Origin: Minisyncoccota bacterium
Lineage (GTDB): Bacteria > Patescibacteriota > Minisyncoccia > Phycocordibacterales > UBA6899
Length of the DNA stretch: 64,000 bases
Assembly: GCA_035583355.1 (NCBI GenBank)
Contig: DATEZQ010000003.1
Span: 129,844-193,843, forward strand
Direction of reading: 5' to 3'
Shown: positions 5,479 through 19,874 of the stretch, one piece after another
Numbering within the stretch: position 1 is the first letter of the stretch
Layout: every line of letters starts with the position of its first letter
Position numbers and translations under genes: made by a program
The notes under the pieces: generated by a model
The model's database searches: none
The model's input: only the letters and a program-made list of their open reading frames with translations
What the model was told of the DNA's origin: nothing

Positions 5479-6030
5479 TTATTTGTAGCGCAAAGAGATG
5501 TAACGATCGAACCAAATTGCAGATACCTTTGTATCGGGCTCTGCATTTTTATATTCGATTGCCGCTTCGCTGAAGTCGGTGCAGGCCTCTGCTCGGAGCA
5601 ATGCATCTTTCTCCTGCAGTTCAGTAAGGCGACGATGCCAAATCGTTGAGGTGGGGTCAGTCTTCTCGGTCGACTTCCAGCCGCTCACGGCGACATCAAT
5701 GTTTTCGCATGCGAGGATTTCGTCCCGCAAGGACGGATTCGTAAGATCGAGGTAACGATTTGCCCAGATGTATTCGGTTTTGGTATCACGCTCTGCATTA
5801 TCCCAGCGCTCCTTTGCTACCTGCCGACTCCGACAGGCGTCAGCGCGTAGGAGTACTTGTTCAAGTGTTATTTTCTCTTTGCAGGCCTTCCATATTTCGA
5901 TTTCCGCAGGGTGAACTGCTTTTTCGAGAAACTGCATTGCGATCACTAGTGCGGTGCAGCGATCGGCTCGCGCCTGGATGATCACACGTGTGCTTTCGGG
6001 TATGGTATACATGAGTGCTCCTTTGTGCAA
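5479..6030 (-). CDS. hypothetical protein with internal repeats of about 45 aa
   Basis: 183 aa. Repeated segments LLRADACRSRQVAKERWDNAERDTKTEYIWANRYLDL and LLRAEACTDFSEAAIEYKNAEPDTKVSAIWFDRYISL. Confidence 0.5.
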   Translation of the reverse strand: MHKGALMYTIPESTRVIIQARADRCTALVIAMQFLEKAVHPAEIEIWKACKEKITLEQVLLRADACRSRQVAKERWDNAERDTKTEYIWANRYLDLTNPSLRDEILACENIDVAVSGWKSTEKTDPTSTIWHRRLTELQEKDALLRAEACTDFSEAAIEYKNAEPDTKVSAIWFDRYISLRYK

Positions 6031-6160
6031 CTGTGAATATTATACTATGTATTACATGGTTAGTCTAGTAACTATAATGTTATATATTAACGATGAGGAC
6101 TGGATATAATTTGAGCAGAGCAAAATAAAAATACACATAATATGTGTATTTTTATTTTGC

Positions 6161-7669
6161 TTATTTCACACGGTATTTGTTGCGAATTTCCTTCACTTCT
6201 TTTTCTTCCTCACTTGCGCGAGTACGCTTCCCTTCTTCGCCTTTCGCAAGAAGTACCTCTTGAGGAAGCATCGCGAATTCTTTTGCGGTTCGCTCGAGCC
6301 ATTCGGTTGTATTGCGCTCGGGGTCCTCAAGCACCTCATCAAAGAGTGCATTGAGGATGGCACCAATGCGCGGACCTGCAGGTTCATCGATGGTCTCCAT
6401 GATTTTTGCACCATCAATCTTTAGCATCTTCACTGATACTGGCGCGCGCATCGCTTCTTCAATCATCGAGTGATATTTGCGCAAGCGATACGGTGTCTCC
6501 ATTGGACGTCCAGTTCCTATACGATCACATGCGCGCACATTCATAAGGTCCCAGACTAATTCAGGTCCGACATTCGCAACAATGCGACGCACTGCGGAGA
6601 GTGTGATCGTCTCTATATCAGAGAAGAACATGTGATAGCGCACGAGTTGTGTGGACTTGAAAATGATTTCGCGAGAATATCGAAGGCGCTCAAGAATTTT
6701 CTTCGCCATCTTTGCGCCGATTACTTCATGTCCATAGAATGTCCACGTCTTTTTCTCCTCTGACCACCTGCGTGATGCAGGTTTGCCAACATCATGAAGT
6801 AATGATCCGAGTCGAACATGAAGTGGCCAAGAGCGATCGGCTGCATGTTGAAGGGCTCGAAGATTGTGCTCCCATACGTCATAGATGTGGATTCCCTTCT
6901 GTTCGCACCCTAGCCCCTCGATAAGCTCAGGGCAAACATAGGTGAGTAAACCCACACGATGGAGGACAAGAATGCCTTCCATTGGTTTCGCACTCATGAG
7001 CATTTTTGAAAATTCGTCACGCACACGTTCCATGGCTATCTTCTCGACAAGCGGAGCGTGAGAAATTACTGCTTCAAGAGTTTTCTCCTCGATAGTGAAA
7101 TCAAGTTGTGCGACGAAACGCACCGCACGCATGACGCGAAGTGCATCCTCAGTGAAACGCAAGTGTGGATCACCCACAGCGCGGATGGTGCGCTTTTTGA
7201 TATCGCTTACTCCGTCGTAAGGATCGATGAGCTCATCACGGACGACATTATATGCGATAGCGTTCATAGTAAAGTCGCGACGCTGCAGATCCTCATAAAG
7301 GCTCTTTGAAAATTGCACGCTGTCAGGGCGGCGAAAATCGCTATATGTAGATTCTGTTCGATAGGGTGTTATCTCAACAATGCGCAACGTTGCACGTTCG
7401 GTATCATTCTCTGGGATTGTTTCATTTACTACTCCGACAGTGCCAAAATCATTCTCATAGAATGTATGGGGAAAAAGTTCGATAATCTCAGCAGGCGTGG
7501 CATTCGTGGTAAAGTCCCAATCTTTCGGAGTCTTTCCCTCGAGGAGATCTCGGGTGCAACCACCGACGAGATAAGCTTCGTAGCCTGCGGATTCAAGAGT
7601 GGAAGCAACGGATGAGATTTCGGGTGGGATATTTAGTAGGGGCATAGTTGTGTGTTGCACGTTAAACAA
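6161..7669 (-). CDS. cca: CCA-adding tRNA nucleotidyltransferase / poly(A) polymerase family with HD domain
   Basis: Class II nucleotidyltransferase N-terminus LVGGCTRDLL and a later HDVGK HD motif. Consistent with tRNA genes here lacking an encoded CCA. Confidence 0.8.
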   Translation of the reverse strand: MFNVQHTTMPLLNIPPEISSVASTLESAGYEAYLVGGCTRDLLEGKTPKDWDFTTNATPAEIIELFPHTFYENDFGTVGVVNETIPENDTERATLRIVEITPYRTESTYSDFRRPDSVQFSKSLYEDLQRRDFTMNAIAYNVVRDELIDPYDGVSDIKKRTIRAVGDPHLRFTEDALRVMRAVRFVAQLDFTIEEKTLEAVISHAPLVEKIAMERVRDEFSKMLMSAKPMEGILVLHRVGLLTYVCPELIEGLGCEQKGIHIYDVWEHNLRALQHAADRSWPLHVRLGSLLHDVGKPASRRWSEEKKTWTFYGHEVIGAKMAKKILERLRYSREIIFKSTQLVRYHMFFSDIETITLSAVRRIVANVGPELVWDLMNVRACDRIGTGRPMETPYRLRKYHSMIEEAMRAPVSVKMLKIDGAKIMETIDEPAGPRIGAILNALFDEVLEDPERNTTEWLERTAKEFAMLPQEVLLAKGEEGKRTRASEEEKEVKEIRNKYRVK

Positions 7670-7678
7670 GAAAAAAGC

Positions 7679-7714
7679 GTTTCACGTGGAACTAGTCTAA
7701 TTATATAGACTAGT
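7679..7714. promoter_or_regulatory. palindromic operator-like sites in the cca promoter
   Basis: GTTTCACGTGGAAC at 7679-7692. A perfect 9-6-9 inverted repeat ACTAGTCTA-attata-TAGACTAGT at 7691-7714 lies immediately upstream of the cca start, which is on the minus strand. Confidence 0.4.
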
Positions 7715-7821
7715 GATTAATTTGGTAGGTATCAAGATGCCAGAACTCGCCCCTTCGTCACATCCATATTTCATTTCGCTGTGCTCATGAAATATGGTGT
7801 GCGAGTAGGGCCAGGGCTCGG

Positions 7822-7964
7822 TTGCCCAGGACTCGACACCACTCACAAAGTAATTTAGGAGCAAAGCACCTAAATTACTAAGTGGTGGTCGTCACGGCTC
7901 GGCGACCCTGCGCTGCGCTTCGCGCGAGCGAGGGTGCCCGCCTCCGCCTTTCGAGTCCGGCGGG
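7822..7964. repeat. tRNA-3'-end-mimic element D, downstream of tRNA-Arg
   Basis: Degenerate direct copy of the tRNA-Arg 3' end at 7822-7840 (ttgcccaggactcgacacc). GC-rich hairpin core. Inverted copy of the tRNA 3' end at 7950-7964 (ttcgagtccggcggg). A terminator hairpin at 7981-8007 separates it from the tRNA. Confidence 0.6.
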
Positions 7965-8014
7965 ATCTCGAAAAATTGCGGCGAATAATGCTTCGCATTA
8001 TTCTTGCATTTTTG

Positions 8015-8086
8015 TGCCCCCGCCAGGACTCGAACCTGGGATAACGGTTTCGAAGACCGTTGTGATATCCACTTCACTACAAGGGC
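8015..8086 (-). tRNA. tRNA-Arg (anticodon UCG)
   Basis: Manual cloverleaf: acceptor GCCCUUG/CGGGGGC, anticodon arm ACGGU-CUUCGAA-ACCGU, T-arm CCAGG-UUCGAGU-CCUGG, discriminator A. No encoded CCA. Confidence 0.8.
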
Positions 8087-8238
8087 ATTAATTGTTTAAA
8101 ATACTCTAACCTGGGAAAAGCAAGGCGCTCCGCGCACCAGGCTTGCTTGCCCGATAAGGAGCCGCCACCGCGGCACTGATCAACTCACGCCTTCGCTCTG
8201 CTCAGTCGCTCACGGGTAACGGATTTCTTGACTGTCCC

Positions 8239-8284
8239 GATATCCGCTTCACAACAAGGGCATTAATTGTTTTTTCGAATACTC
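8239..8284. repeat. partial copy of the tRNA-Arg 5' half plus its upstream flank
   Basis: gatatccgcttcacaacaagggcattaattgttttttcgaatactc is about 85 percent identical to 8064-8106, which is the tRNA 5' part plus flank. Confidence 0.65.
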
Positions 8285-8405
8285 AAATTCTTGAAAACTT
8301 GACTGCAAAAACTATGCTCAAAAACGAGCGTAGACACAATATACGTTAAAATGGCTCACTTGCCAAATATTTTAAAATCGGTTAATATACCTCTACAACA
8401 AAAGG

Positions 8406-8476
8406 CGCGGGTATGGTTTAGTGGTAGAATGCGTCCTTGCCAAGGACGAGACGGGAGTTCGATTCTCCCTACCCGC
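8406..8476 (+). tRNA. tRNA-Gly (anticodon GCC)
   Basis: GCGGGUA acceptor, anticodon arm CGUCC-UUGCCAA-GGACG, T-arm GGGAG-UUCGAUU-CUCCC, discriminator A. No CCA. Confidence 0.85.
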
Positions 8477-8484
8477 ACAGCACA

Positions 8485-8707
8485 GAAAAAACAGAGCAAA
8501 GCTCTGTTTTTTCTTTTGTGCTTGCGGGTAGGGAGAATCGAACGGAGAGGGGTCGGGAGAGGAAGCCTCTCCCGTCTAGGAGAGCAGGAGTTTCTTGTTT
8601 CACAAGAAACCCCGTCGAGAACCGTGGGTTCTCGAAGAACTTTGCCGTGCGGGCCCCTTTAGGGTGCGCGAGCAAAGTTCGTGAGATCTCTCCCCTCCCT
8701 ACCCAGG
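8485..8707. repeat. tRNA-3'-end-mimic element A, downstream of tRNA-Gly(GCC)
   Basis: Terminator hairpin at 8491-8505 with flanking A and T runs. Perfect 20/20 inverted copy of the tRNA 3' end at 8523-8542. Hairpins cgagaaccgtgggttctcg and gtgcgggcccctttagggtgcgc. Degenerate direct copy of the tRNA 3' end at 8677-8707. The core is about 75 percent identical to element B in the opposite orientation. Confidence 0.7.
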
Positions 8708-8750
8708 CAAAGCCTGGCTAGGGAGTCCCTGATGTTCCTGGGTTTGTTCA

Positions 8751-9353
8751 GTTGTCCTTTATCCCCACTCTCCACAGCCTTATACACAGACAAAGTGTGG
8801 AAAAACTCACTCAGCTCGTATCCTTCAATGAATTTTTGTTGCTATTGAGCCACTTCACAAAGGACACTGTGGACAACCCTGTGGATAGCGGGGATAACTA
8901 TCATGCAAATGTGGAGTTCGATAGAAGTTTTCCCTAATTTCCGGAAATTTGGCTGTTCCCACCATTACTCAATTGTCTGCCCCCTGCCTCCTCCGATTTG
9001 GCCCATGTCTCTTTGATTTGCCATAGCTCCTTGATCTTATGTGCCTATACACATCATATGCCTAGGTGGTGGGGAAAACTCTGTGGATAGTGGGGATAAA
9101 GGACAAATTAGGGTATTTCCTCACGGAATTGCGATTCCTGGGGCTTTATGCTACAGTAGCGCACCTCTGAGTTCTCAGACAATGTGTGGAAAAATGGAGC
9201 AGCATCCTCGCTATTCCATAGAAATCTTATATTTTAGCCGATATTTTGCCTGTATCTGGGGATAACCCTGTGGATAGTGGGGATAAAGGACATTGATTAT
9301 CTTTGAATTCCTCAATGCACAGTCTTTGCTATTGATATACATAGTTATCCACA
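8751..9353. other. candidate chromosomal replication origin (DnaA-box cluster plus AT-rich region)
   Basis: Four copies, one inverted, of a 26-bp repeat of the form ctgtggatagYggggataaaggacaa at 8751-8779, 8877-8900, 9081-9106 and 9258-9295. TGTGGATAG is 8/9 of the DnaA box TGTGGATAA. Extra TGTGGAAAA boxes. A perfect TTATCCACA at 9345-9353 followed by aatataatttatatttaaaa. Confidence 0.5.
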
Positions 9354-9391
9354 TAATGAATATAATTTATATTTAAAACCGCGAAATACAT

Positions 9392-10445
9392 GTTTCACGG
9401 GAAACAAATTGATATATAATGGGTATATGGATCACAGGATGAGTAATACCGAGGTTGGCACTATGGGTGAAACACTTGCAGTCCGCTATCTCAAATCAAA
9501 GGGATTCTCCATTCTCGCGAAAAACTTTAATATCCCTGGTGTTGGCGAGATCGACATTATCGCTCACTGTGACGGCACTTTTCATTTTGTCGAGGTGAAA
9601 TCCTCATATTCCTTCTCGCTAAACAGTGAATATCACTCTTCTCGTAACTTTGATGATGCGAAAAAGCAACGTATTGCACGAGTTATGCGGAAATACTGTG
9701 ATTTGTATAAGATCGATAGCCCTCGAACTGTAAGCCTCTGCGTTATTTCCTTTTCACGTGAAACATATGATGCTCGCGTATTTTTTGACCCTTTTGTACT
9801 GGTTGACACTATTTGATTTCACGTGAAACGTTGGGACTTGGTTTCATACGAGTGTAATAATATATATTAATTTGGTATTCGAGCTCTGTATTTTCAGCCG
9901 GATTATTGCGCCTGCACGTTTCCCTACTGAAATAGACATTGCTCACCAGGAATCGCTGCAAAATCTGTATGTGGGTCATTACGTAACATGCCATACCCCT
10001 TCCGCTGTGTACTTGAGTATTCTGCATATAATCCAGTTTTCACGTGAAACAAATTGGATATGTGATATCCATAAACAGCCAGACGTTCATGTTCCAGCAA
10101 TGTGTTACGTAGGAACATTATGGTTTCATGTGGAACATGTGATTCTTGGTATTTTGTATTTGATCACTAAGAATGTGTAATAATTACAATTCATGAATAC
10201 CTATTCAGAAGCATATTGTAGCAAATGACCGTTGCGAAGTGTTCAGTACTGTTTCACGTGGAACAGGACATGTCGATCAATGCAATAGCTAAGCTGACCG
10301 TGATCATTGGTCTATGTAGTGCTATGGCTGCTCAGGTATGCATGGATTCTTATATGGCAATTGATATTCTGAATATTTTCTGGAGAACTGCGTGGTTGCA
10401 GAAAGTGATATTGCTGCAAGTTGGTCATTATGTTTCGCGTGAAAC
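9392..10445. repeat. array of 7 copies of the 14-bp palindrome GTTTCACGTGRAAC
   Basis: Copies at 9392-9405, 9751-9764, 9815-9829, 10036-10050, 10123-10136, 10251-10264 and 10432-10445. 9817-10620 is AT-rich with no convincing ORF. Confidence 0.7.
9409..9816 (+). CDS. YraN/UPF0102-family endonuclease-like protein
   Basis: GETLAVRYLKSKGFSILAKNFNIPGVGEIDIIAH...FVEVK. The true start is probably at an internal Met (9439 or 9463). Confidence 0.7.
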   Translation: MIYNGYMDHRMSNTEVGTMGETLAVRYLKSKGFSILAKNFNIPGVGEIDIIAHCDGTFHFVEVKSSYSFSLNSEYHSSRNFDDAKKQRIARVMRKYCDLYKIDSPRTVSLCVISFSRETYDARVFFDPFVLVDTI

Positions 10446-10624
10446 AGAAAATAGGCAATATTCATATGCATTGTTGAGTTACTACGTAACCATTGTAAAC
10501 ATAATTATTATTGTCTGAAAATATTCTTTGTACTATATTTTTCATTATCATTTTATAATAGGCGTAAGCAATAAAGTCTTATGTCCTTTATTTCCACTGC
10601 TGAAATTTTTGTGGTATAATGTAA

Positions 10625-10969
10625 GTGTCTTATAGGGAACTTGTTCCAATTATGTCACATCATCCATTACTCATTGTCAAGGCACGTCATGTAGTTCGCC
10701 ATTCGCATCTTAGTGATGAGGATAAGCAGCTCATGTTTGAGCGCATTCCATATCTTGATCTTGGAATGCTCGCTCTTTTCATTGAGTCTGCTGAAGAGAA
10801 TCCATTTGCACTTGATGCAATTGTGAGTAGTATGAAAAAGAAGCTTGATGCTCGAGGTAATCTCCACCGTTTACATGAGATCCTCGAGAATGAAGAAAAG
10901 GAAATCGCTGACGAGGAAGGAGATGAGACACTTCCGGGTGTTGAATTGAATAATAGCGCAGCAATCTAG
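10625..10969 (+). CDS. hypothetical protein
   Basis: ORF preceded by TGTGGTATAAT, an extended -10. Probable start at MSHHPLL. No family recognised. Confidence 0.4.
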   Translation: MSYRELVPIMSHHPLLIVKARHVVRHSHLSDEDKQLMFERIPYLDLGMLALFIESAEENPFALDAIVSSMKKKLDARGNLHRLHEILENEEKEIADEEGDETLPGVELNNSAAI

Positions 10970-10980
10970 CGAATATCTAT

Positions 10981-12000
10981 ATGAAAGAGCATTTAAACAA
11001 TCCAGAAGAGGAAATGTTTGCAGCATATGGTGAAGACCTTGGCGAGGCTCCACAAGGGGAGTCTGTTGAGGCTGAGCAGCAGTCTGCGGGAGAGGTCCTT
11101 GAGGATTCTCCTATTTCTGACGCTGATCGATATGCAGAGCAGGTGCTCGCGGGCCATTCTCCCGAAGAGAGGGCTGCTGTGGAGAGTATAGTTTCCTCTA
11201 TTGAGAACGTGTACGCAAAGGTAAGTTCTGATGACGTCTTGACCCGAGAAAAAGCTACGGAGGCTTTGCTGGGAACTGCGTTTGCAGCTGCACCAACCAC
11301 AGCCATGGGGCATGAGCAGGAACCATTGTGGAAGAAGGTTCTTACAGGGGCTTCACGGGGTGCCCACGGTGCAGTGAAGGCTCTGGCACTTACTGCAACT
11401 CTTGCAGCTCCTGCTGCAGCACAGGATTACAAGCATCCTAGCCCTGAGATTACTAAAAAAGTTGATTATATATTTGGATCGAGCATTATGGAGCGATTTG
11501 GTGATAGGCGTGGTCACTATAAGAAAGCCTATACAAATCTTGAGGTGCGAAAGAAATTTCTCATCCAGCAGCTTCATGATTTAACTGATGCTCGTCCAAG
11601 AAATACTGCAGAGGAGACTCATATTTTGCGTGTTGAGGCTGATCGTGATGCGAAGCTCGCAGCCCTCCGTGTCGAGCGTACGCTTGAAACTATGTCATTT
11701 GAGAGTCTGCATTCAAATAATCCTGTAGATAAGGCACAGTATGAGGCGAATATTGCCTCGATTGCTGCAAGAGAGGCTAGGGCAATAGAGGAGTGTGAGG
11801 CACAGCTGCTTGCAGAGCATCGTAAGGCGGTTCCAGTAAAGGAGGTTGAAGACTTGCGAAGAGAAATCATTCGAATTGAGAAGAGTGAGGATGAGATTGT
11901 CCAAAGATTCCTCGCGACCCGAAATAACTCGTATAGTTACGGCTCAAGCTGGGGGTTTGGTGGTGGAAGAAACTGGACGCAGTGGGATGGGTATAAATAA
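10981..12000 (+). CDS. hypothetical acidic, coiled-coil-rich protein
   Basis: 339-aa ORF, no family recognised. The ORFs overlapping it on the opposite strand were judged spurious. Confidence 0.5.
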   Translation: MKEHLNNPEEEMFAAYGEDLGEAPQGESVEAEQQSAGEVLEDSPISDADRYAEQVLAGHSPEERAAVESIVSSIENVYAKVSSDDVLTREKATEALLGTAFAAAPTTAMGHEQEPLWKKVLTGASRGAHGAVKALALTATLAAPAAAQDYKHPSPEITKKVDYIFGSSIMERFGDRRGHYKKAYTNLEVRKKFLIQQLHDLTDARPRNTAEETHILRVEADRDAKLAALRVERTLETMSFESLHSNNPVDKAQYEANIASIAAREARAIEECEAQLLAEHRKAVPVKEVEDLRREIIRIEKSEDEIVQRFLATRNNSYSYGSSWGFGGGRNWTQWDGYK

Positions 12001-12020
12001 AAGAGCACAAGTGCTCTTTT
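12001..12020. terminator. bidirectional terminator
   Basis: aagagcacaagtgctctt hairpin plus T-run. Confidence 0.6.
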
Positions 12021-12360
12021 ATTTTTTTTCGACTTCGTCAACATACTCGAGGAAGAGTCTTTCGTCGAACCCTCCACGTTTTTCGCGTTTACTAATTTTC
12101 TTTGCAGAAAGCTCCTCTTTGTCGATCTGGTGGGCAAGGATGATTGCGTCGACAAGCTCAAGTAAGTCTGAGAGTTCGCCGATGATATCTTCTTTGCTTT
12201 TTGCCTCAAGGAGTTCCATTGCCTCCTCAATAACTTTTTGTTTAAGCGCGAGTGCAAATTGTTCATCATTCAGAATCGAGATCTTTGGTGTAGCATTGTC
12301 TGCCGTAATGATTTCGGGAATTCGATCTCGGATAAGTTTGTTGTAGGTGATGCGGGGCAT
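12019..12360 (-). CDS. MazG-like / phosphoribosyl-ATP pyrophosphohydrolase-like NTP pyrophosphatase
   Basis: Start MPRITYNKLIRDRIPEII..., about 113 aa. The upstream part of the ORF overlaps element B and is not coding. Confidence 0.55.
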   Translation of the reverse strand: MPRITYNKLIRDRIPEIITADNATPKISILNDEQFALALKQKVIEEAMELLEAKSKEDIIGELSDLLELVDAIILAHQIDKEELSAKKISKREKRGGFDERLFLEYVDEVEKK

Positions 12361-12435
12361 GAGTATAGTGTAGCATATGGAGAAGGAGAAGAGGAGAAGA
12401 GGGGAGCAAGCGTTGCTTGCGAAGAATACGAGAAG

Positions 12436-12714
12436 CGCACCCTTTGGGTGCGGCCGGGGAATCGAACAAACTTTTCTCGCGCACTCCAGAGGAGCCTCGC
12501 GCGGAAAAGTTAAGACCGGGCAATCGAACAATCACTTGTTCGCGCACCCCGGAGGGGCCCCGCACGACAAGTGATTTCGAGAACCCACGGTTCTCGACGC
12601 TCGAGGACTCGCTGCTCTCCTACGCAAGAGAGGTACCCTCTCTTGGCATCTCTCCGTTCGAATCCCGGCGCCCCTAATAAAAAAGAAAAACTCCCTGAGG
12701 AGTTTTTCTTTTTT
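12436..12714. repeat. tRNA-3'-end-mimic element B, downstream of tRNA-Pro
   Basis: Direct degenerate copy at 12450-12467 (gcggccggggaatcgaac). Core hairpins gagaacccacggttctc and gcaccccggaggggccccgc. Perfect 19/19 inverted copy of the tRNA-Pro 3' end at 12656-12674. Terminator hairpin aaactccctgaggagttt at 12679-12714. Confidence 0.7.
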
Positions 12715-12718
12715 ATTG

Positions 12719-12791
12719 TCGGGGCGCCGGGATTCGAACCCGGAGTCATCCGCTCCCAAAGCGGACATGTTAGCCGTTACACCACGCCCCG
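12719..12791 (-). tRNA. tRNA-Pro (anticodon UGG)
   Basis: CGGGGCG acceptor, anticodon arm UCCGC-UUUGGGA-GCGGA, T-arm CCGGG-UUCGAAU-CCCGG, discriminator A. No CCA. Confidence 0.8.
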
Positions 12792-12859
12792 ATATTTCTC
12801 TTTTATACACTTCGGTCATGACAGTCATCCGCTCGCATAAACTGATATGCGGCCATTAT

Positions 12860-12876
12860 GCCACGCCCCGATGTCT
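12860..12876. repeat. short partial copy of the tRNA-Pro 5' end plus flank
   Basis: gccacgccccgatgtct resembles accacgccccgatatttct at the tRNA 5' end (12781-12799). Confidence 0.4.
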
Positions 12877-13000
12877 TTGTGGGCTCAAGCTCACGTTGTT
12901 GCATATTATCATAGTTTCTAAAAAACGCTAGTCCTATTTATTGCACAATAAATTCCTCAGCATGCTTGTGTGCTTTTCAAAATGCAGTACCATTATTAGT

Positions 13001-13456
13001 ATGAAATTGAATTTTCGCATGAGTGTATGGAGCCTCTTGTTGCTCGCTGCGTTCTTCCTCGCTGCACACCCTGAGCTCTTAGAATTCAAGTTCACTCCAC
13101 GTAGATATAATGTACTTCATGCTGTTGTTCGTGAAGGAGTTGCGAATGATCAATCATGGGCAATTACTCGAATTGCATTCTCTCCTGAAAAGATTCCGTT
13201 TGTAAAAATCCAAAACAGAAATCGTTCATTGCGCGCTTTCTTCTATAATGATGCGCTTTACGTTGAGCAGCACGAGCCGAGAGAAGTGTTTTTGATTTCG
13301 GGAAATTTCTGGACTGAACCAGATATAAAAAATATTCATTTTACAGATACGATGACACTTTTTGTTCGTGGTGTTACTGCGCAGTATGGAGTCCAAGTTC
13401 CGATTGTGCTGCGCATTCATCTTGATACTGGTGTTATCGAAATGATTCAGTCATAG
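13001..13456 (+). CDS. hypothetical secreted protein
   Basis: Signal-peptide-like N-terminus MKLNFRMSVWSLLLLAAFFLAAHP. Confidence 0.5.
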   Translation: MKLNFRMSVWSLLLLAAFFLAAHPELLEFKFTPRRYNVLHAVVREGVANDQSWAITRIAFSPEKIPFVKIQNRNRSLRAFFYNDALYVEQHEPREVFLISGNFWTEPDIKNIHFTDTMTLFVRGVTAQYGVQVPIVLRIHLDTGVIEMIQS

Positions 13457-13460
13457 CACT

Positions 13461-14102
13461 ATGTCCAAATTTGCTACACAAGAATTACGAAAAAAATATG
13501 CGGGGCAGACGCTTCTGAAACTCAAGAAGCTTTTTCCGAATGCGCGCATGTTTTTGAATTACGAAACACCATTTGAGTTACTTGTTGCGGTGATGCTTTC
13601 TGCGCAGTGTACAGATAAAAAAGTGAATGAAGTTACACCAGCTCTATTTGAAAAATACAAAACAGTTGATGACTATGCGAGAGCATCCATTAAGGATCTC
13701 GAGCGACTTGTATACCAAACAGGGTTTTATCATGCCAAGGCAAAGCATATCAAAGAGGCGGCCAAGGTCGTGCGTGATGAGTTCAAGGGACAGCTCCCTC
13801 GCACAATGAAAGACATGTTGCGGATTCCTGGAGTGGGGAGAAAGACTGCGAACGTGGTGCTTGGAAATATATATGGAGTAAGCGAGGGGATTGCTGTTGA
13901 TACGCATGTGCGTCGACTGTCGTATGTACTCGGTTTTTCAAAGGAAAAAGCAATTCCTGCAATCGAGCGGGATCTTATGAGGCTCTTTCCTCGAAAGGAG
14001 TGGTTTCGCCTTACCTATTATCTTATAGAGTATGGGAGACTGTATTGTCCCGCAAAAAAGCATGACCATAGTATGTGCCCACTTGGCCATATCGATGGAT
14101 AA
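13461..14102 (+). CDS. nth: endonuclease III (HhH-GPD DNA glycosylase)
   Basis: LLVAVMLSAQCTDKKVN...IPGVGRKTANVVL...VDTHVRRL, plus a C-terminal Cys cluster. Confidence 0.85.
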   Translation: MSKFATQELRKKYAGQTLLKLKKLFPNARMFLNYETPFELLVAVMLSAQCTDKKVNEVTPALFEKYKTVDDYARASIKDLERLVYQTGFYHAKAKHIKEAAKVVRDEFKGQLPRTMKDMLRIPGVGRKTANVVLGNIYGVSEGIAVDTHVRRLSYVLGFSKEKAIPAIERDLMRLFPRKEWFRLTYYLIEYGRLYCPAKKHDHSMCPLGHIDG

Positions 14103-14383
14103 GCATTGCTTGAACTCCACCTTGCAGTTAATTTGCATTTGCAAATAAGTATCGTTAAACAGTTTCGCTCCTGTGCCGCTTGTGTAACATGTTAATTTAA
14201 CTATCGAATTGCTACATATTGTGCCGTGTAACACATGTAATTACGTAGCAGAGAGTGAAAAGTGCACTTTTGTGTGCTGTGAAACACCTTTCTGAGGTTA
14301 GGGTGCATTTGAGCCATGTTTCACATTACGCAGAAGAATTTCCCTTACACGCATAATAAAAACGCGACATAGTCGCGTTTTGT

Positions 14384-14824
14384 TCACTTAGCATATTCAG
14401 GTGACATGGTCGATGGACGAGGGGTAATCATGTCGCCCTTACGGTCTAGGATTGATTTGAAGATTTCAGTAATAGTGAAACCAAGATGTACGACAAGCAC
14501 AATGATGAGCTGAGATTCTGGGTGTGTGTAGATGTAATTCAGCTGTGCGCAGTGCGGGCAGCGCAAGGAGCAGGTTTGGGGTTCGGAGGGGTGCCATCGC
14601 CCTCTTGTCGAAGTTGGAAGGGGGCCACTGTAGAAGTGGTCTTGGACGAAGTCTGCAGAGCCCAGTGTGAAACATTGGGAGCACTGCACGCAGTGCACGG
14701 TGCACTCCTTTGCGATAGCAAGTTTTTGGGAATGAAGATTCGACCTCATCTCCTGAGGCGTGTCACCTGATGCGGTGGTAATCCTTAGAATGCGATTGAG
14801 TGTATCGGTCACGAGAGACTCCAA
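14384..14824 (-). CDS. hypothetical Cys-rich protein, possible zinc ribbon
   Basis: CVQCSQC and CPHC motifs. Start uncertain. Confidence 0.3.
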   Translation of the reverse strand: MESLVTDTLNRILRITTASGDTPQEMRSNLHSQKLAIAKECTVHCVQCSQCFTLGSADFVQDHFYSGPLPTSTRGRWHPSEPQTCSLRCPHCAQLNYIYTHPESQLIIVLVVHLGFTITEIFKSILDRKGDMITPRPSTMSPEYAK

Positions 14825-14966
14825 AAAGGTTCCGCAGTAAAACTAGCACAGTAGGAGGCTCAGTCAAGGATGTAAGTGAGACAATCTGCTCCATTGCAAA
14901 ATTCGAAATTTTTGCTAGTATGACACTACATTCATGAAGTGAGTGCAGAGGTAAAACTAAGAACCT

Positions 14967-15002
14967 AAGGTTCTGTATCAAATAATATGCGGGTGTAGTT
15001 TA
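14967..15002. repeat. exact 36-bp copy of the tRNA-Gly(UCC) 5' end plus upstream flank
   Basis: aaggttctgtatcaaataatatgcgggtgtagttta is identical to 15133-15168. Confidence 0.8.
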
Positions 15003-15154
15003 CCCCAGAAAGGAAGTGCGTAGCAATTCCTTGAGTTGCTGTGAATCGCGGAGGCGATTCCTTAGGGGGCAAGAACGCCTGGTTCGCGGAGCGACGTTCT
15101 TAATCGTAAAACTTCTTGTGGTTTGAGAATCAAAGGTTCTGTATCAAATAATAT

Positions 15155-15225
15155 GCGGGTGTAGTTTAGTGGTAAAACTCCTGCCTTCCAAGCAGGTGTC
15201 GGGGGTTCGATTCCCCCTGCCCGCA
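15155..15225 (+). tRNA. tRNA-Gly (anticodon UCC)
   Basis: GCGGGUG acceptor, anticodon arm CCUGC-CUUCCAA-GCAGG, T-arm GGGGG-UUCGAUU-CCCCC, discriminator A. No CCA. Confidence 0.85.
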
Positions 15226-15232
15226 CAACAAA

Positions 15233-15460
15233 CAAAAAAGAAGCGAAAGCTTCTTTTTTGTTTTTGTTGTGACGGGCAGGGGGAATCGAAAGACGGAGCC
15301 GGGCACCGTCACCCGGCGCAGATTTTATCCGAGCTTCGCTCGTGATAAATCCAGCCGCGTGCACGGTCGGCGAGTCGGGGTCGCGAGCACTTAGTCGCAG
15401 CGAGCTTTGCGAAGCGAGACTTAGTGACTTGAGACCGATTCCCCAAATCCGATTTCGTGT
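15233..15460. repeat. tRNA-3'-end-mimic element C, downstream of tRNA-Gly(UCC)
   Basis: Terminator gaagc-gaaa-gcttc with A and T runs. Perfect 18/18 inverted copy of the tRNA 3' end at 15273-15290. GC-rich hairpins (ccgggcaccgtcacccgg ...). Degenerate direct copy near 15444-15456. Confidence 0.6.
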
Positions 15461-15483
15461 GCGAAGTACTCCATGAAACTCAA

Positions 15484-15594
15484 GCACGCAGTGTTTTAGT
15501 TTCCCTATGCATCGCAACGGGAAACATAAAGTGTTTTTAGTTTCCTCCTGCATTACATCGAAAGCACGCAGTGTTTAGTTTCATCTGCATCGTG
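15484..15594. repeat. three tandem repeats of about 35-40 bp upstream of the tfoX-like gene
   Basis: gcacgcagtgttttagtttccctatgcatcg, aaagtgtttttagtttcctcctgcattacatcg and gcacgcagtgtttagtttcatctgcatcgtg. Confidence 0.6.
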
Positions 15595-15645
15595 TAGAAT
15601 TTCTATTTCCTTCCTCAACTCTATTTCCCGTGCAATAATAAATAC

Positions 15646-15972
15646 ATGTCCACCCAACGCTCTACCGCTGACTACCTCCTCCAGCTTCTCGGCTCCGACC
15701 ATTTTGCAATCCGTGCTATGTTCGGCGAGTACGCATTGTATTGCGATAGTAAAGTCGTCGCACTCATCTGTGATGATCTTCTCTTTGTAAAGATTCTACC
15801 AGCAAGTATTAGACTTGAATCTCTTTGCGAAAAAGGGGAGCCATACCCTGGCGCGCGATTACACTATCTTGTAGAAGAGTCACAATGGAAATCCATAGAT
15901 GACCTACGAGATATTCTGATCGATGTTGCCGCCACACTTCCTGCTAAGAAGCCGAAGACGAAAAAGGAATAA
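15646..15972 (+). CDS. TfoX N-terminal domain protein (Sxy/TfoX-like competence regulator)
   Basis: MFGEYALYCDSKVVALICDDLLFVKI...ESQW aligns with Sxy LFGSYSLTVDDTVFAMVSDGELYLRA...ESLW. Confidence 0.65.
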   Translation: MSTQRSTADYLLQLLGSDHFAIRAMFGEYALYCDSKVVALICDDLLFVKILPASIRLESLCEKGEPYPGARLHYLVEESQWKSIDDLRDILIDVAATLPAKKPKTKKE

Positions 15973-16026
15973 GCGAAGAAGACAAAAACAGCGTAACGCT
16001 GTTTTTCATTTTATATTTCGAATACT

Positions 16027-16216
16027 CAAAACAAAAAACACCCGAAGGTGTTTTCTGCTGTATGTTTTCTAACCTGCAGTTAATCGCATACTAATGTCCT
16101 TGTGCGCCTTCTTTGTGTGGAAGGAACGGAGCTTCTTTGCGCGTAAGCACGTCGCACAAAACAAAAAACACCCGAAGGTGTTTTCTGCTGTATGTTTTCT
16201 AACCTGCAGTTAATTA
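16027..16216. repeat. 130-bp tandem duplication carrying the hup terminator and a decayed hup 3' fragment
   Basis: Identical 58-bp copies at 16027-16085 and 16157-16214, each with the terminator aaaaaacacccgaaggtgtttt. The intervening 16086-16156 resembles the hup 3' coding end (gtccttgtgcgccttc... against gtccttgagtgccttcgc...). Confidence 0.7.
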
Positions 16217-16486
16217 CTTAACTGCGTCCTTGAGTGCCTTCGCTGCGCGGAACTTCGGAACCTTCATTGCAGCGACCTTGATGGTCTCACCGGTACGTGG
16301 ATTACGTGCGGTGCGTGCTGCGCGAGTGTTCACTGAAAAGATGCCGAGGCCTGCGATCGAAACTTCACCCTCCTTCTTAAGGCCGTTGGTGATGGTCTCG
16401 ATTACAGTCTCAACAGCCTGCTCAGCAGAAACCTTGGTGCCACCAAGTTTCTCGTGGACTGCTTCGACGATTGACTGCTTGTTCAT
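16214..16486 (-). CDS. hup: DNA-binding protein HU
   Basis: MNKQSIVEAVHEKLGG...GLGIFSVNTRAARTARNPRTGETIKV. Confidence 0.9.
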   Translation of the reverse strand: MNKQSIVEAVHEKLGGTKVSAEQAVETVIETITNGLKKEGEVSIAGLGIFSVNTRAARTARNPRTGETIKVAAMKVPKFRAAKALKDAVK

Positions 16487-16750
16487 ATTTTTGGGAGCAG
16501 TATGCTACTAATTGGTGCGATGGCGCACCGTATGCAACACTACTCATCACGAATAATGCTGCATACGATGTACCACCACTCCAGCGGAGGCGACCCTCCT
16601 AACTTCATTGTACCAACTAGATTAATCCGCGCAACAGAGCCATATAATTGGAATACAAAAATTGTGGAAAACAATGGCTTAACCACAATGACTATATAAA
16701 AAATACGGCTTAGTATAGCCGTATTTTTTATATAGTAGAGAGGTACTTGA

Positions 16751-18283
16751 CTAGTGTGCAAATTCAACGCATCGTGTTTCCCTGATAATGCACACTTTTA
16801 TCTCCCCAGGATATTTCAATTCCTGTTCAATATCATGTGCAATCTCACGCGCGAGCTGTAATGCGTGATAATCATCAATACTATCTGGTCGCACGAAGAC
16901 GCGAACCTCACGACCGGCAGAAAGTGCATATGCTTTCTCGACGCCTTCCTTGCTTGTTGCAATACGCTCAAGGTCTTCCAGCTTCTTGATATACTGCTCA
17001 ACTGACTCACGACGGGCACCAGGGCGTCCACCGGAGATGGTATCTGCAGTTTGTACGATAATAGACTCAAGTGTTTCGTAGGGGTACTCCTCGTGGTGTG
17101 CCTGCATTGCGAGGATAATACGCTCATCGACATTGAATTTCTTCAAGATACGGCGACCAATCTCAACGTGCGTTCCTTGCACTTCGTGATCGACAGCCTT
17201 ACCTATATCGTGAAGGAGGGCACCAGCTTTTGCAATCGATACATCGGCACCAAGCTCAACTGCAAGATAGCCTGCAATATGTGCCATTTCAACAGAATGT
17301 TGGAGGACGTTCTGTCCATAGCTTGTACGGAAATAGAGACGACCAATAATGGAAATGAGGCGAGGGTCGATATTGAGCAGTCCACACTCTGCGGCTGCCT
17401 GCTCACCTTTAACCTTCATGATGTGGTTAAGGTCCGCCTTTGCTTTCTCCACAAGTTCCTCGATTTTTGCGGGCTGAATGCGACCATCGAGAATAAGGTT
17501 CTCGAGCGCAATGCGAGCAATCTGACGACGAACCGGGTCAAATGCAGAGATTGTGATGATTCCAGGAGCTTCATCGACAAGGAGCTCAACTCCCGCAATG
17601 CGCTCAAAAGTACGAATATTGCGGCCTTCTTTGCCGATGATCTTACCCTTGATGTCTTCACTTGGAATGGTGACGTGGGTAGTCATTACTTCTCCTGCGT
17701 TTGAAGATGCAATACGTTGAATTGATGTAGCAAGGATGTCTTTCGCTCGACGCTCTAAGCGCTCAAATGAATCTCTCTCAAGTTTTATAGTACGTGCTTG
17801 CAAGTCGTCCGTGGCCTGCTTCTCTACTTTCGCAATGAGTTGATTGCGAGCATCTTCAACAGAGAGTCCACTGACACGCTCAAGTGCATTCTCGACTTCC
17901 TCACGCTGCGCAATGAGATGTTCTTTGATCGTGCGCAATTCAGCAGCTTGATTCTCAATCTTCTTGCGGTCATCCTCAAGTTTTTGTTCTCGATTTGCAA
18001 AAGCTGTTTCCTTTTGATAGAGATGTTCCTCGCTCTTTTGGAGCTTTTCAGTATGCATGCGCTCGGTATCACGCAGGCTTTCTGCATGCTTTTCAGCTTG
18101 CGCGGTGGCTTCTGCTATGATCTTGCGTGATTCTTTTTGGGCTTCGAGGCGGATTTTTTCTGCGTCGAGGCTTGCCGTGCTGTTCCTGCGAATAGCGAGA
18201 ACGAAGTGGAGAAGGTATCCTGCGATAAGTCCCAAAAATCCACTTGCGGCGGTGGTTGCAATGATGTTTCTGAGTTGATCCAT
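16751..18283 (-). CDS. rny: ribonuclease Y
   Basis: N-terminal TM helix and coiled coil, KH domain (IIGKEGRNIRTFE), HD domain (LLHDIGKA). 510 aa. Confidence 0.9.
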   Translation of the reverse strand: MDQLRNIIATTAASGFLGLIAGYLLHFVLAIRRNSTASLDAEKIRLEAQKESRKIIAEATAQAEKHAESLRDTERMHTEKLQKSEEHLYQKETAFANREQKLEDDRKKIENQAAELRTIKEHLIAQREEVENALERVSGLSVEDARNQLIAKVEKQATDDLQARTIKLERDSFERLERRAKDILATSIQRIASSNAGEVMTTHVTIPSEDIKGKIIGKEGRNIRTFERIAGVELLVDEAPGIITISAFDPVRRQIARIALENLILDGRIQPAKIEELVEKAKADLNHIMKVKGEQAAAECGLLNIDPRLISIIGRLYFRTSYGQNVLQHSVEMAHIAGYLAVELGADVSIAKAGALLHDIGKAVDHEVQGTHVEIGRRILKKFNVDERIILAMQAHHEEYPYETLESIIVQTADTISGGRPGARRESVEQYIKKLEDLERIATSKEGVEKAYALSAGREVRVFVRPDSIDDYHALQLAREIAHDIEQELKYPGEIKVCIIRETRCVEFAH

Positions 18284-18557
18284 GGTCTAAAGCGACCTGT
18301 GGTTGGGGCTGAGCACGATAATAAAGGTTTCAGCCTTTACGCTGTCGACAAAATAGCGCTGCAAAAGTTTTTTGCAAAGAAAAGTTCAAAAATACGTTTT
18401 TTAGGTTTGCATCTGTCTTCTGCCACATAGGTCGGTCACTGCTGTACAGTGGTATAGTAATTGTAGCACCGGCCTAAATAAATGGCAAAAAACAGGGGAT
18501 TGCGGGAGCCTTTTCGTGTGCTAGGATGACCACAGAAACAGAAAAAGGAGCTCTTTT

Positions 18558-19688
18558 ATGGGGAATGTCGACTTAATCGCCATTGATGGTGGACCTTGTG
18601 GGGGAAAGACCACAGGAATCGTGCATCTTTCCGATGCACTTATTACTGCAGGCATGCTCCCGCTTGTGGTGCCTGAGGCTGCGACCCTGCTTATTCGTGG
18701 GGGAGCTCCTCCTTGGCAGCTTGCGCGCAGGAGTTTTCAGGAAAGCGTGAACAGAATGCAGTTTGCTCACGAAGAAGTGTGGCGGAATGCCGCCGCTGAG
18801 CTCTCCGAGAAATTCCAGAAGCGCGCAGTGGTGCTCTGTGATCGCGGGCTTCCAAGCTCAATTGCGTATATCGACGGAGATCACCCCGTTGCAGAGTTCG
18901 AAGAGATTGTGAAGCCTTTTGGTTTTCCTTCTGCGGAATCGGTTTTCGCAAGGTATACCGGCGTGCTTCATTTCGTTACGGCCGCAGATGGTGCCGAGGA
19001 ATACTACACTCTGGAGAACAATGCAGCACGTACGGAGACTCCTGAAGAGGCCCGTGCGCTTGATCTCCGTACGAAGTCTGCGTGGCTCGCACATCCACAC
19101 CTCTGTGAGATTGCGAATCGCATGCCTGACGGTACCGCAGTCGGTTTCGATGAGAAGATGCGACGAGCGACTGCTTCACTCTTTCACATGCTCGGCATCC
19201 CTGTGCCTGTGGAAATTGAGGACAAGTTCCTGCTTCGCTCATTCGTGCCTGAGCTCTTGCCGGTTCCTTATGAGAAGGTGTACATTACGCAGACCTACCT
19301 CACCTCCGACAACAAGGCGGTGACTGAGCGTGTGCGCAAACGCGTTTGGCGTGATGGTGTGTCCTATATTCACACAGCCAAAGAACCCGCTCGAGGAGGT
19401 GGACGAATTGAACGCGAGCGATTTATCTCTCATCACGAATACTGCACGCTGCTTGGTCGCCGTGACTCTCGGCGTCGTACGCTTGAAAAGATCAGGCATT
19501 GTTTCTTGTGGTCTGCGCAATACTTCGAAGTTGATGTATTCACAAATCTTCCCCGTCCGCTTATTCTTTGCGAAAGGGAAAAGACGACGATTAGTGAAAC
19601 GACTGTTCTCCCGCCTTTCCTCGACGTCGTCCGAGACGTGACGAATGAGCGTGAGTACTCAAATAGTTCGATCGCCTTGGTAATTTGA
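18558..19688 (+). CDS. P-loop NTPase (kinase-like) fused to a C-terminal CYTH domain
   Basis: Walker A IAIDGGPCGGKTT at the N-terminus. C-terminal VEIEDKFLL ... RIERERF ... FEVDVF resembles the CYTH (triphosphate tunnel) signature EIERKFL. Confidence 0.55.
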   Translation: MGNVDLIAIDGGPCGGKTTGIVHLSDALITAGMLPLVVPEAATLLIRGGAPPWQLARRSFQESVNRMQFAHEEVWRNAAAELSEKFQKRAVVLCDRGLPSSIAYIDGDHPVAEFEEIVKPFGFPSAESVFARYTGVLHFVTAADGAEEYYTLENNAARTETPEEARALDLRTKSAWLAHPHLCEIANRMPDGTAVGFDEKMRRATASLFHMLGIPVPVEIEDKFLLRSFVPELLPVPYEKVYITQTYLTSDNKAVTERVRKRVWRDGVSYIHTAKEPARGGGRIERERFISHHEYCTLLGRRDSRRRTLEKIRHCFLWSAQYFEVDVFTNLPRPLILCEREKTTISETTVLPPFLDVVRDVTNEREYSNSSIALVI

Positions 19689-19692
19689 AGAT

Positions 19693-19716
19693 ACCGCCCT
19701 ACGGGGCGGTTTTTTG
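19693..19716 (+). terminator. rho-independent terminator
   Basis: accgccctacggggcggt plus tttttt. Confidence 0.7.
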
Positions 19717-19816
19717 TATTATTAATTTTGAGCATGTAAAAAGAACGCCGCATCGGAATGCGGACCAGGCATTCTTGCCAGTAGCAGTGTGGCCTCCGCA
19801 ACGCACATCAACTCAA

Positions 19817-19848
19817 TAAAAAAGCTACTCAAGAGAGTAGCTTTTTTA
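19817..19848 (-). terminator. clpP terminator
   Basis: A-run, then agctactc-aaga-gagtagct, then T-run. Confidence 0.65.
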
Positions 19849-19874
19849 TTTTTCTGGTAGCGCGACGACCGCGA

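Follow-up and report, generated by a model that had tools for sequence, protein, structure and literature searches.

A structured repeat of Patescibacteria with a conserved core and flanks copied from the gene ends that precede it

The tRNA-Gly(GCC) locus and the elements of the window

The window, the whole stretch of DNA analyzed here, comprises 64,000 nt of the Minisyncoccota bacterium assembly GCA_035583355.1 (contig DATEZQ010000003.1, positions 129,844-193,843, forward strand) and is part of a Patescibacteria chromosome, near the replication origin. Its genes encode a CCA-adding enzyme (6161-7669), whose relatives bearing a name come from Parcubacteria or Patescibacteria, together with YraN, endonuclease III, RNase Y, NusA, trigger factor, type IV pilus proteins, ComEC, RecJ and a Xer-like recombinase (integrase, 1181-2125); apart from this integrase, the 64 kb encode no transposase, reverse transcriptase or other mobilizing enzyme. 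The ORF of the CCA-adding enzyme had no exact entry on record, probably owing to the start codon chosen for it. Rfam 15, applied to the whole window at the gathering threshold, returned only four tRNAs, and between 7800 and 13200 a search with E values up to 10 added only hairpin-type noise, such as miRNA models placed on terminator palindromes. BLAST of positions 6000-20000 against phage and plasmid collections gave a sole match, that of the tRNA-Gly(TCC) gene to tRNAs of Listeria/Bacillales.

Directly behind the tRNA-Gly(GCC) gene lies element A (Table 1), a composite in which the family core is followed by a further hairpin module and by a degenerate direct repeat of the end of the tRNA. 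The intrinsic terminator of the tRNA gene, T1, is the apex of a long palindrome (8457-8543) of which the tRNA 3' end, X1, is the 5' arm and its inverted copy, X', the 3' arm, ending 1 nt ahead of the core. A preliminary description made from the letters of the sequence had noticed this inverted copy over 20 nt; the copy is real and is perfect over 21 nt, and the strings quoted there were correct, although three of the ranges were off by one base (gcgggtagggagaatcgaac lies at 8524-8543, not 8523-8542). The core opens with the purine-rich leader GAGAGGGGU, followed by hairpin 1 (8554-8574), the linker UCUAGGAGAG, hairpin 2 (8585-8614) and hairpin 3 (8615-8635), the last with the loop region ACCGUGGGU. 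Two hairpins had been assigned to the core from the outset, and both exist: cgagaaccgtgggttctcg is at 8616-8634, and a pattern for it with up to three mismatches finds A and B alone (none expected by chance), while gcgggcccctttagggtgcgc sits at the top of the module that we call hpX, which lies outside the family core and consists of an outer stem AACUUUGC/GCAAAGUU around CGUGCG-GG-CCCC-loop-GGG-UGCGCG. The motif GTGAGAT in the degenerate direct copy, X2, is a mutated T-loop common to the tRNA-associated subfamily discussed below.

The segments of A proved to fold stably when this was checked, the 87-nt near-perfect palindrome reaching -68.4 kcal/mol as RNA (z = -14) and hpX and the local hairpin at the right end the values in Table 1. 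For a read-through RNA covering 8407-8545, folding predicts a 40-bp hairpin (-78.7 kcal/mol, z = -11.6) in which the tRNA cloverleaf is destroyed. A promoter scan gave no promoter-like site between T1 and the core, so that the core would be expressed only by read-through of T1, and neither X' nor the core is followed by a T-tract.

Table 1. Features of the tRNA-Gly(GCC) locus with element A and of the tRNA-Pro(TGG) locus with element B (positions in the window)
Feature	Positions	Strand	Remarks
Promoter-like TTGCCA-17-TAATAT before tRNA-Gly(GCC)	8360-8388		
tRNA-Gly(GCC)	8407-8478	+	ARAGORN; Rfam tRNA 70.3 bits; CCA not encoded
X1 (master copy), 3' part of tRNA-Gly(GCC), T-loop to discriminator	8457-8477	+	
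Intrinsic terminator T1	8484-8514		Symmetric: A-tract, 14-bp stem, T-tract; terminator scan, inverted repeat I25, fold
X'	8523-8543	+	Perfect 21-nt inverted copy of 8457-8477 (I7, 100% complementary)
Family-2 core in A	8545-8641	+	Covariance model R1, 68.7 bits
Extra hairpin module hpX in A	8637-8680	+	44 nt; fold -26.9 kcal/mol, z = -5; I6, I8 between A and B
X2 in A	8677-8704	+	Degenerate direct copy of the tRNA-Gly(GCC) 3' end: GTTCG..TGAGAT..CTCCCTACCC
Local hairpin CTCCCUAcCCAGGC-AAA-GCCUGGcUAGGGAG	8695-8725	+	Fold -23.1 kcal/mol; X2 followed by its own inverted copy; without T-tract
Element B, behind tRNA-Pro(TGG)	12436-12717	-	R1 56 bits, E = 3e-15; I4, I12; alignment A1
B end hairpin	12437-12451	-	
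B X2b	12452-12467	-	Degenerate direct copy of the tRNA-Pro T-arm
B hpX, second copy	12469-12511	-	
B X2a	12516-12529	-	Degenerate direct copy of the tRNA-Pro T-arm
B hpX, first copy	12530-12576	-	
B family-2 core	12571-12654	-	
B X'	12656-12674	-	19-nt inverted copy of the tRNA-Pro end
B terminator	12676-12717	-	
tRNA-Pro(TGG)	12718-12791	-	

Element B, behind tRNA-Pro(TGG) on the minus strand, had been proposed as a homolog of A in the opposite orientation. Alignment of A(+) with B(-) bears this out, with a mean column identity of 73% and compensated changes in a stem (GGGAGAGG/CCTCTCCC vs AAGAGAGG/CCTCTCTT). A covariance model, R1, that had been built without B found it as well (Table 1), and in a scan of the window only A and B were accepted; a weak match at 52315-52385 was dropped, as it lies inside a coding region. 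At the start of each of the two elements stands an inverted copy of the 3' end of the tRNA next to it. The other two tRNAs of the window, tRNA-Arg(TCG) and tRNA-Gly(TCC), have inverted and direct copies of their own 3' ends around a different conserved core, which we call family 1; with family 2 behind tRNA-Gly(GCC) and tRNA-Pro(TGG), all four tRNAs of the window thus carry such an element.

A family of structured cores behind tRNA and protein genes

A two-block pattern taken from the core of A and B matched at least 120 metagenome contigs, and A and B are copies of an interspersed structured repeat of Patescibacteria (Paceibacteria/Parcubacteria). We aligned 83 distinct cores from the metagenome matches listed (alignment A3, 87 positions). 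The family-2 unit that emerges from these 83 copies is about 87 nt long and consists of three hairpins joined by conserved purine-rich linkers, in the consensus order GGAARGGGGUC, hairpin 1, GUGGAGGAAGGCAG, hairpin 2 and CGUYGGAAAACCGUGGGUUUCCRAGGAG, the last stretch being hairpin 3. Element A has the three hairpins in this fixed order with the linkers GGAARGGGGUC, GUGGAGGAAGGCAG and ACCGUGGGU, and so does B. Across the 83 cores, 93.7% of the cells of the three helices are paired, vs 83.4% in shuffles, and 216 cells are changed on both sides of a helix, vs 77; none of 500 shuffles reached either value, and controls in which the helices were slid gave 34-61% paired cells, every one far below the observed figure. 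The whole insert is shorter than 250 nt and has no ORF. Hairpin 2, the variable one, has lengths that fall into the three classes modulo 3 in 33, 24 and 26 of the 83 copies and thus prefers no frame; this even spread, together with the covarying stems and the fact that they cross the tRNA gene and its terminator, marks the ORFs predicted at 8351-8662, 8437-8721 and 8469-8675 as the artefacts that they had been taken for.

Structure also tells the strands apart, and the core always has the orientation of the gene upstream. On the strand of the upstream gene the helices contain 52 G-U pairs vs 9 A-C mismatches, which places the structure on that strand (plus for A, minus for B), although the asymmetry fits single-stranded DNA as well as RNA. 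This finding argues against a convergent antisense gene, that is, an opposite-strand RNA with the tRNA-like 3' end GTTCGATTCTCCCTACCCGCA that would meet the tRNA gene at a common bidirectional terminator. Convergent genes are usually separated by terminators as symmetric as T1, with its A-tract and its T-tract, and the opposite strand folds equally well (-102.2 kcal/mol, z = -8), but it is the RNA from that strand that would carry the mismatches, and no minus-strand promoter-like site occurs from 8725 to 9000; we regard such a gene as scarcely credible.

Several known or simple structures were considered for the core. Rfam gave no match to the self-cleaving ribozymes (HDV-like, hatchet, twister, pistol, hammerhead), and inspection of alignment A3 by eye revealed no nested pseudoknot. 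Likewise by eye, an HDV-like double pseudoknot was dropped because GGGGUC has no complement, a K-turn in hairpin 2 because the 3-nt bulge is absent even though tandem G.A pairs are present, a CCGUGG-CCGUGG pseudoknot because the linker varies without compensation and the loop is fixed by the search pattern, and a small ORF after the GGAGG linker because its frame is not kept; a CsrA-type GGA sponge and a G-quadruplex were also weighed and not retained. Among viral contigs the family-2 pattern had no match, and the family-1 pattern had 35 chance matches in high-GC phage genomes, none of them with the family-1 5' motif.

The preliminary description had implied that the element is specific to tRNAs, and this did not hold. 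Within 250 nt downstream of a same-strand tRNA gene we find 54 of the 121 matches listed, spread over 29 anticodon types; another 57 do not lie behind a same-strand tRNA, and 10 are too near a contig end. In a trimmed context set of 78 copies from the matches listed, 43 follow a same-strand tRNA, 16 the stop codon of a protein gene and 7 stand at a gene start on the other strand, with 7 unclear and 5 too near a contig end. Recognizable by the C-terminal peptides that they encode, rpsI (...PQWSKR*, five copies) and rplL (...KVTLK*, two copies) are among the 16 protein targets, beside others; ribosomal-protein genes are, as a rule, highly expressed. The link to tRNAs is therefore incidental, the same core and the same flank logic occurring behind protein genes.

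Inverted and direct copies of the host gene end

Flanks were compared in 79-80 family-2 copies among the matches listed. Of 79 copies, 53 have a 30-nt 5' flank that is complementary to upstream sequence (median score 11, vs 5.9 for shuffles), and 48 have a 3' flank that repeats upstream sequence directly. A hairpin whose 3' arm consists of the 22 nt preceding the core is present in 73 of 80 copies, with a median span of 79 nt and a folding energy of -46 kcal/mol, vs -24.7 kcal/mol for shuffles; the end of the upstream gene provides its 5' arm, the terminator of that gene its apex and X' its 3' arm, and only about 1-2 nt (about 1.5 nt) separate its foot from the start of the core. The direct repeat, X2, measures 14-88 nt, and its start lies a median of 7 nt from the 5' foot of the hairpin. 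Element A, with its X1, X' and X2, shows this layout. The core is conserved and the arms are copied from the end of the host gene: the palindrome arms differ between copies of the family, and the flanking repeats are derived from the target and are different at every site.

Complementarity between the 5' and the 3' flank, on the other hand, stays at chance level, with 6 of 79 copies reaching a score of 10 (median 6, vs 5.0 for shuffles), and this bears on the helix that had been thought to close element A into one domain. The ten nucleotides GGGTAGGGAG (8526-8535) are indeed complementary to CTCCCTACCC (8695-8704), but 8695-8704 also pairs locally with 8716-8725, and in the closest relative, contig L002, the right arm, CTCCCTACCC, has been replaced by an unrelated perfect 14-bp hairpin; the closing helix is thus not conserved. 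An interpretation of the element as a non-coding RNA that mimics a tRNA, with an acceptor/T minihelix of X' and X2 closing the core and with processing by RNase P, RNase Z and CCA addition, depends on the same pairing. X' does correspond to the 5' strands of the acceptor and T stems, 10-11 bp with X2 are possible in the window and in its relative L005, the gene of the CCA-adding enzyme is nearby, and some X2 copies (L015, L018) end in CCA where the tRNA gene lacks it. The chance-level complementarity of X' and X2 nevertheless largely refutes the idea, L002 has lost the helix, protein genes, which offer no minihelix, are followed by the same core, and two T-loop mutations shared by X2 copies (GTGAGAT) weaken its pairing with X'; we consider a tRNA mimic improbable.

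The tRNA-associated subfamily carries T-loop-like sequence at both ends of its insert, an anti-T-loop GAATCGAAC at the 5' end and, at the 3' end, GTGAGAT, a T-loop with two shared changes that is often followed by a 9-nt mini-hairpin. Contig L178 has a perfect 63-nt direct repeat, from the 3' strand of the T-stem to the end of the terminator, around the insert TTAATCGT-GACAGATTCGAAC-TG-core-AATATGTGAGAT; there, as in L133, the direct repeat matches better than the inverted arm does, so that X' may either be copied at insertion or be carried in. Gene conversion, rather than youth, could account for the identity of such perfect direct repeats. Direct repeats that span the T-loop to the end of the tRNA, with a 19/19 match behind tRNA-Arg in L005, are those of the classical T-loop att class, and the partial 5' tRNA copies upstream of three tRNAs of the window (D5, D6, D14) and convergent tRNA pairs with a common terminator, as in L013, recall decayed tandem or inverted tRNA duplications. 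We nonetheless hold it highly improbable that the loci are only integrase scars (attL/attR) at tRNA genes or remnants of such duplications and contain no element as such. Each attP-type element recognizes a single target, whereas the insert of 100-200 nt has a covarying core common to 29 tRNA types (among the matches listed) and to protein genes, and site-specific recombination leaves the inverted arm unexplained.

Among the five contigs with a copy behind rpsI, and between the two with a copy behind rplL, X' reproduces the synonymous differences of the coding end base for base. The rplL gene has no other terminator; X' and the last ~30 coding nt together form its hairpin, which covaries fully between two orthologs. 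Two contigs, L002 and L005, have the same four tRNAs in synteny and CCA-adding enzymes 88% and 74% identical to that of the window; both have an ortholog of A, in which X' is conserved at 22/22 (L002) and 21/22 (L005) positions despite a diverged T1, and their family-2 orthologs score 46-80 bits with R1. In L005, X2 is far better preserved (GATATCTCCCTACCCCCAC), and no element B lies behind its tRNA-Pro.

The contact of the core with the hairpin foot, and rpsI and rplL as the recognized protein targets beside many tRNAs, can also be read as the work of a cis-acting RNA module of the host, in which X' would make a stable 3' hairpin, the core would aid termination, cleavage or decay of read-through RNA, and the spread would reflect selection for service to highly expressed genes. 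In favor of such a module we count the rplL hairpin, which is the only terminator of its gene, and the fact that X' has stayed perfect in the window, L002 and L005 in spite of the divergence of T1. Against it stand the lack of a T-tract after X' or the core and three traits that it leaves unexplained, namely the direct repeat, the tandem and nested copies and the copies at gene starts on the other strand. Moreover, the window and L002 have perfect but unrelated hairpins at one and the same position, which suggests that hairpin arms undergo templated correction; such correction, rather than selection, could keep X' identical to the tRNA. A purely host-serving module appears to us possible, though unlikely.

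Turnover of the elements is evident from the relatives. The tRNA-Gly(TCC) gene is followed by family 1 in the window, L002 and L005 and by family 2 in L008, L010 and L022; tandem copies occur in L005 (behind tRNA-Gly-TCC) and nested copies in L010, L094 and L095. In 80 loci from other Paceibacteria species, 46 of 251 tRNAs have an inverted or direct copy of their own 3' end downstream that passes the score threshold, two of the direct matches falling in a neighboring tRNA gene, and there are at least three kinds of core among the Paceibacteria loci. R1 found six family-2 copies in 1.23 Mb of related loci, all behind tRNAs, which is a low copy number for a mobile element. A search for an allele of the same species with an empty site found none, and the exact insertion junctions are accordingly not defined.

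Interpretation and comparison with known systems

The best reading of these data, and in our view probably the right one, is that of a non-autonomous mobile structured element with target-derived flanks; the lack of a mobilizing enzyme in the window, apart from the Xer-like integrase, and the low copy number speak against it. Such an element would spread by insertion or by a copy-choice process that doubles the stretch of target between the insertion point and the terminator end and that provides or creates the inverted arm X'. The order S, inverted S, core, S could be the product of two template switches at the terminator hairpin, or it might result from staggered nicks at the feet of an extruded hairpin. 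Since the ends of the insert in the tRNA-associated subfamily resemble T-loop sequence, we propose that the element may be able to home to any tRNA gene. Fold-back copying was dropped as the sole source of X', the palindrome being broken by a 9-nt bulge in L091 and by an 8-nt deletion in L133.

The order of segments is familiar from DUP-TRP/INV-DUP rearrangements and quasi-palindrome template switching, in which two switches at a hairpin yield S, inverted S, S, and the perfect but unrelated hairpin arms of close relatives fit the templated correction of palindromes. Those events, however, are sporadic errors without cargo, and here a conserved core stands at the second junction in at least 120 contigs. 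Among mobile elements, REP/BIME and RAYT-mobilized REPIN sequences are likewise short, non-coding, interspersed hairpin repeats located close behind the 3' ends of genes, frequently serve as terminators or as stabilizers of 3' ends, and are non-autonomous, with the enzyme encoded elsewhere in the genome. The arms of REPs are their own conserved sequence, in contrast to the elements described here, in which the arms are copies of the host gene end and the core is conserved, and REPs have no long direct target repeat; the 64-kb window contains no RAYT or IS200-like gene. Palindrome-targeting insertion sequences (IS1397/ISKpn1, IS110-type) insert in connection with host hairpins and thereby acquire host-derived inverted-repeat flanks, but they are autonomous and insert in the loop of the palindrome with a 2-4-bp duplication, whereas the family-2 core lies at the foot of the hairpin and its duplication measures 14-88 nt. 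A MITE, which is expected to have terminal inverted repeats of its own and a short duplication of fixed length, was rejected on account of the target-derived flanks and of this variable length.

Class C (IIC) group II introns recall the elements described here in several ways: they insert right behind terminator or attC hairpins, are oriented like the upstream gene and contain a stretch that is complementary to the 5' exon. These introns nevertheless measure at least 600 nt, have six domains and usually encode a reverse transcriptase, and group II introns make no target duplication; a class C intron (domains I-VI, catalytic domain V, GUGYG/AY ends) was ruled out by the core of ~87 nt, with three simple hairpins and no Rfam match. 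Group II introns have moreover been reported to be absent from Patescibacteria (PMC13011429), and the nearest paper that we found concerns group I introns in the anticodon loops of Patescibacteria tRNAs (PMC13011429). Integrative elements at tRNA 3' ends (T-loop att class) also leave the upstream tRNA intact and are flanked by a direct repeat from the T-loop to the 3' end, but they are kilobases long, encode an integrase and use one tRNA, and they possess neither an inverted copy nor a common structured core. Each of the nearest known kinds shares one trait with the present family and appears to differ from it in a defining feature, and the unusual trait of the family is that its hairpin arms are taken from the target, whereas the cargo that lies between is conserved. 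The family is large, is absent from Rfam, and is not described in the literature that we searched.

If the mobile element also acts at the RNA level, its placement suggests how. On read-through of the terminator, X' would lock the 3' end of the gene in a duplex of 30-40 bp just before the core, and with this duplex directly ahead of the core, the most likely RNA role, speculative as it is, would lie in forming 3' ends, or in keeping read-through transcripts insulated or disposing of them. A cis-acting role in 3'-end formation or in dealing with read-through RNA would also suit the fixed place of the core next to the hairpin foot, the way in which X' covaries with coding sequence, and the repeated use of tRNA and ribosomal-protein genes as targets. 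The two aspects could be combined in a mobile RNA module that takes a gene-specific terminal hairpin from the host 3' end and so constitutes a self-propagating 3'-end-formation cassette of highly expressed genes in the genome-reduced Patescibacteria, spreading by hairpin-templated copy-choice. Its core would then act at its own 5' edge, for example as a motif that cleaves itself or recruits an RNase, or as a terminator independent of a U-tract. We offer this combination tentatively and think it doubtful as a whole; its copy-choice mechanism would be without a described counterpart.

Patescibacteria make up a large share of bacterial diversity, the hosts of this repeat being tiny groundwater bacteria, and to our knowledge almost nothing is known of their non-coding RNA or mobile DNA. 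Since the insertion history of each locus can be read from the order S, inverted S, core, S, the mechanism is testable, with template switching at terminator hairpins, structure-specific nicking and guide-like T-loop pairing as the candidates. The elements also mark gene ends that depart from the usual terminator layout of a hairpin plus T-tract and, as a practical matter, they create spurious ORFs and pseudo-tRNA fragments in annotations.

Other core types behind tRNA genes

Family 1, whose core differs from the three-hairpin family-2 core of elements A and B, is represented in the window behind tRNA-Arg(TCG) and tRNA-Gly(TCC) (see table) and follows the consensus GAATCGAAAG-N-CGGAG[hairpin]GAG-N'-CGGGGTCGCG[hairpin]TGTGAC|CGATTC. 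The positions N and N' covary across 23 distinct copies (CG in 10, AT in 6, GC in 5, other combinations in 2), and all 13 matches to a strict regular expression in 1.3 Mb sit 23-272 nt downstream of a tRNA on the same strand. Just 3' of the family-1 element of tRNA-Gly(TCC), at 15470-15600, AGCACGCAGTGTTTTAGTTTCC... occurs in three imperfect copies spaced about 40-60 nt apart. A third core type was seen at four loci of related Paceibacteria (L006, L021, L044 and L048), behind tRNA-Gly, tRNA-Pro and tRNA-Arg; its end, ...GTACTG-NNNNN-TGTAA-NNNNN, abuts the repeated T-loop and T-stem.

Features at tRNA genes in the window
Feature	Position	Strand	Association
Family-1 element	7826-7964	-	tRNA-Arg(TCG)
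Family-1 element	15271-15444	+	tRNA-Gly(TCC)
hpX	8637-8680	+	element A
hpX	12530-12576	-	element B
hpX	12469-12511	-	element B
Partial 5' copy of tRNA-Arg	8214-8272		upstream of real gene
Partial 5' copy of tRNA-Pro	12852-12872		upstream of real gene
Partial 5' copy of tRNA-Gly(TCC)	14960-15002		upstream of real gene

An extra hairpin module and origin-like sequence

An additional hairpin of 40-47 nt, hpX, is inserted in elements A and B after the family-2 core and ahead of the direct copies of the tRNA end; in it, CGYGCG-RGG-NNCC-loop-GGNN-UGCGCG is enclosed by a variable outer stem. Each hpX copy in element B is followed by a fresh GTTCGATTSCCCGG, and hpX may constitute a further family of small elements. 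The interval that separates element B from the start of the next gene holds a purine-only run, ggagaaggagaagaggagaagagggga, at 12375-12410.

Element A adjoins an origin-like region (7653-10446) that contains 10 parS-like sites (up to 3 mismatches to TGTTTCACGTGAAACA), with 0.37 expected in the whole window, as well as 12 DnaA-box-like sites at 8759-9353 (up to 1 mismatch to TTATCCACA). Element A itself contains one of the 10 parS-like sites, in its hairpin 2, a placement that is probably coincidental.

Duplicated 5' sides and the CCA end

Partial 5' copies precede the genes for tRNA-Arg, tRNA-Pro and tRNA-Gly(TCC), and the 5' sides of these tRNAs have therefore been duplicated too. The tRNA-Gly(TCC) copy also takes in ~25 nt of upstream sequence, and behind it comes a GC-rich, hairpin-forming insert of ~120 nt (15003-15125).

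None of the four tRNA genes in the window encodes CCA, and the gene for the CCA-adding enzyme (6161-7669, minus strand) adjoins the tRNA cluster, a synteny kept in the related loci L002, L004 and L005 and in many of the 80 other species. At two further loci, L015 and L018, the downstream direct copy of the tRNA-Gly(GCC) end reads ...GCACCA, including CCA, and the genes themselves are followed by other bases; these CCA-bearing copies represent either the older gene end or a sequence copied from mature tRNA.
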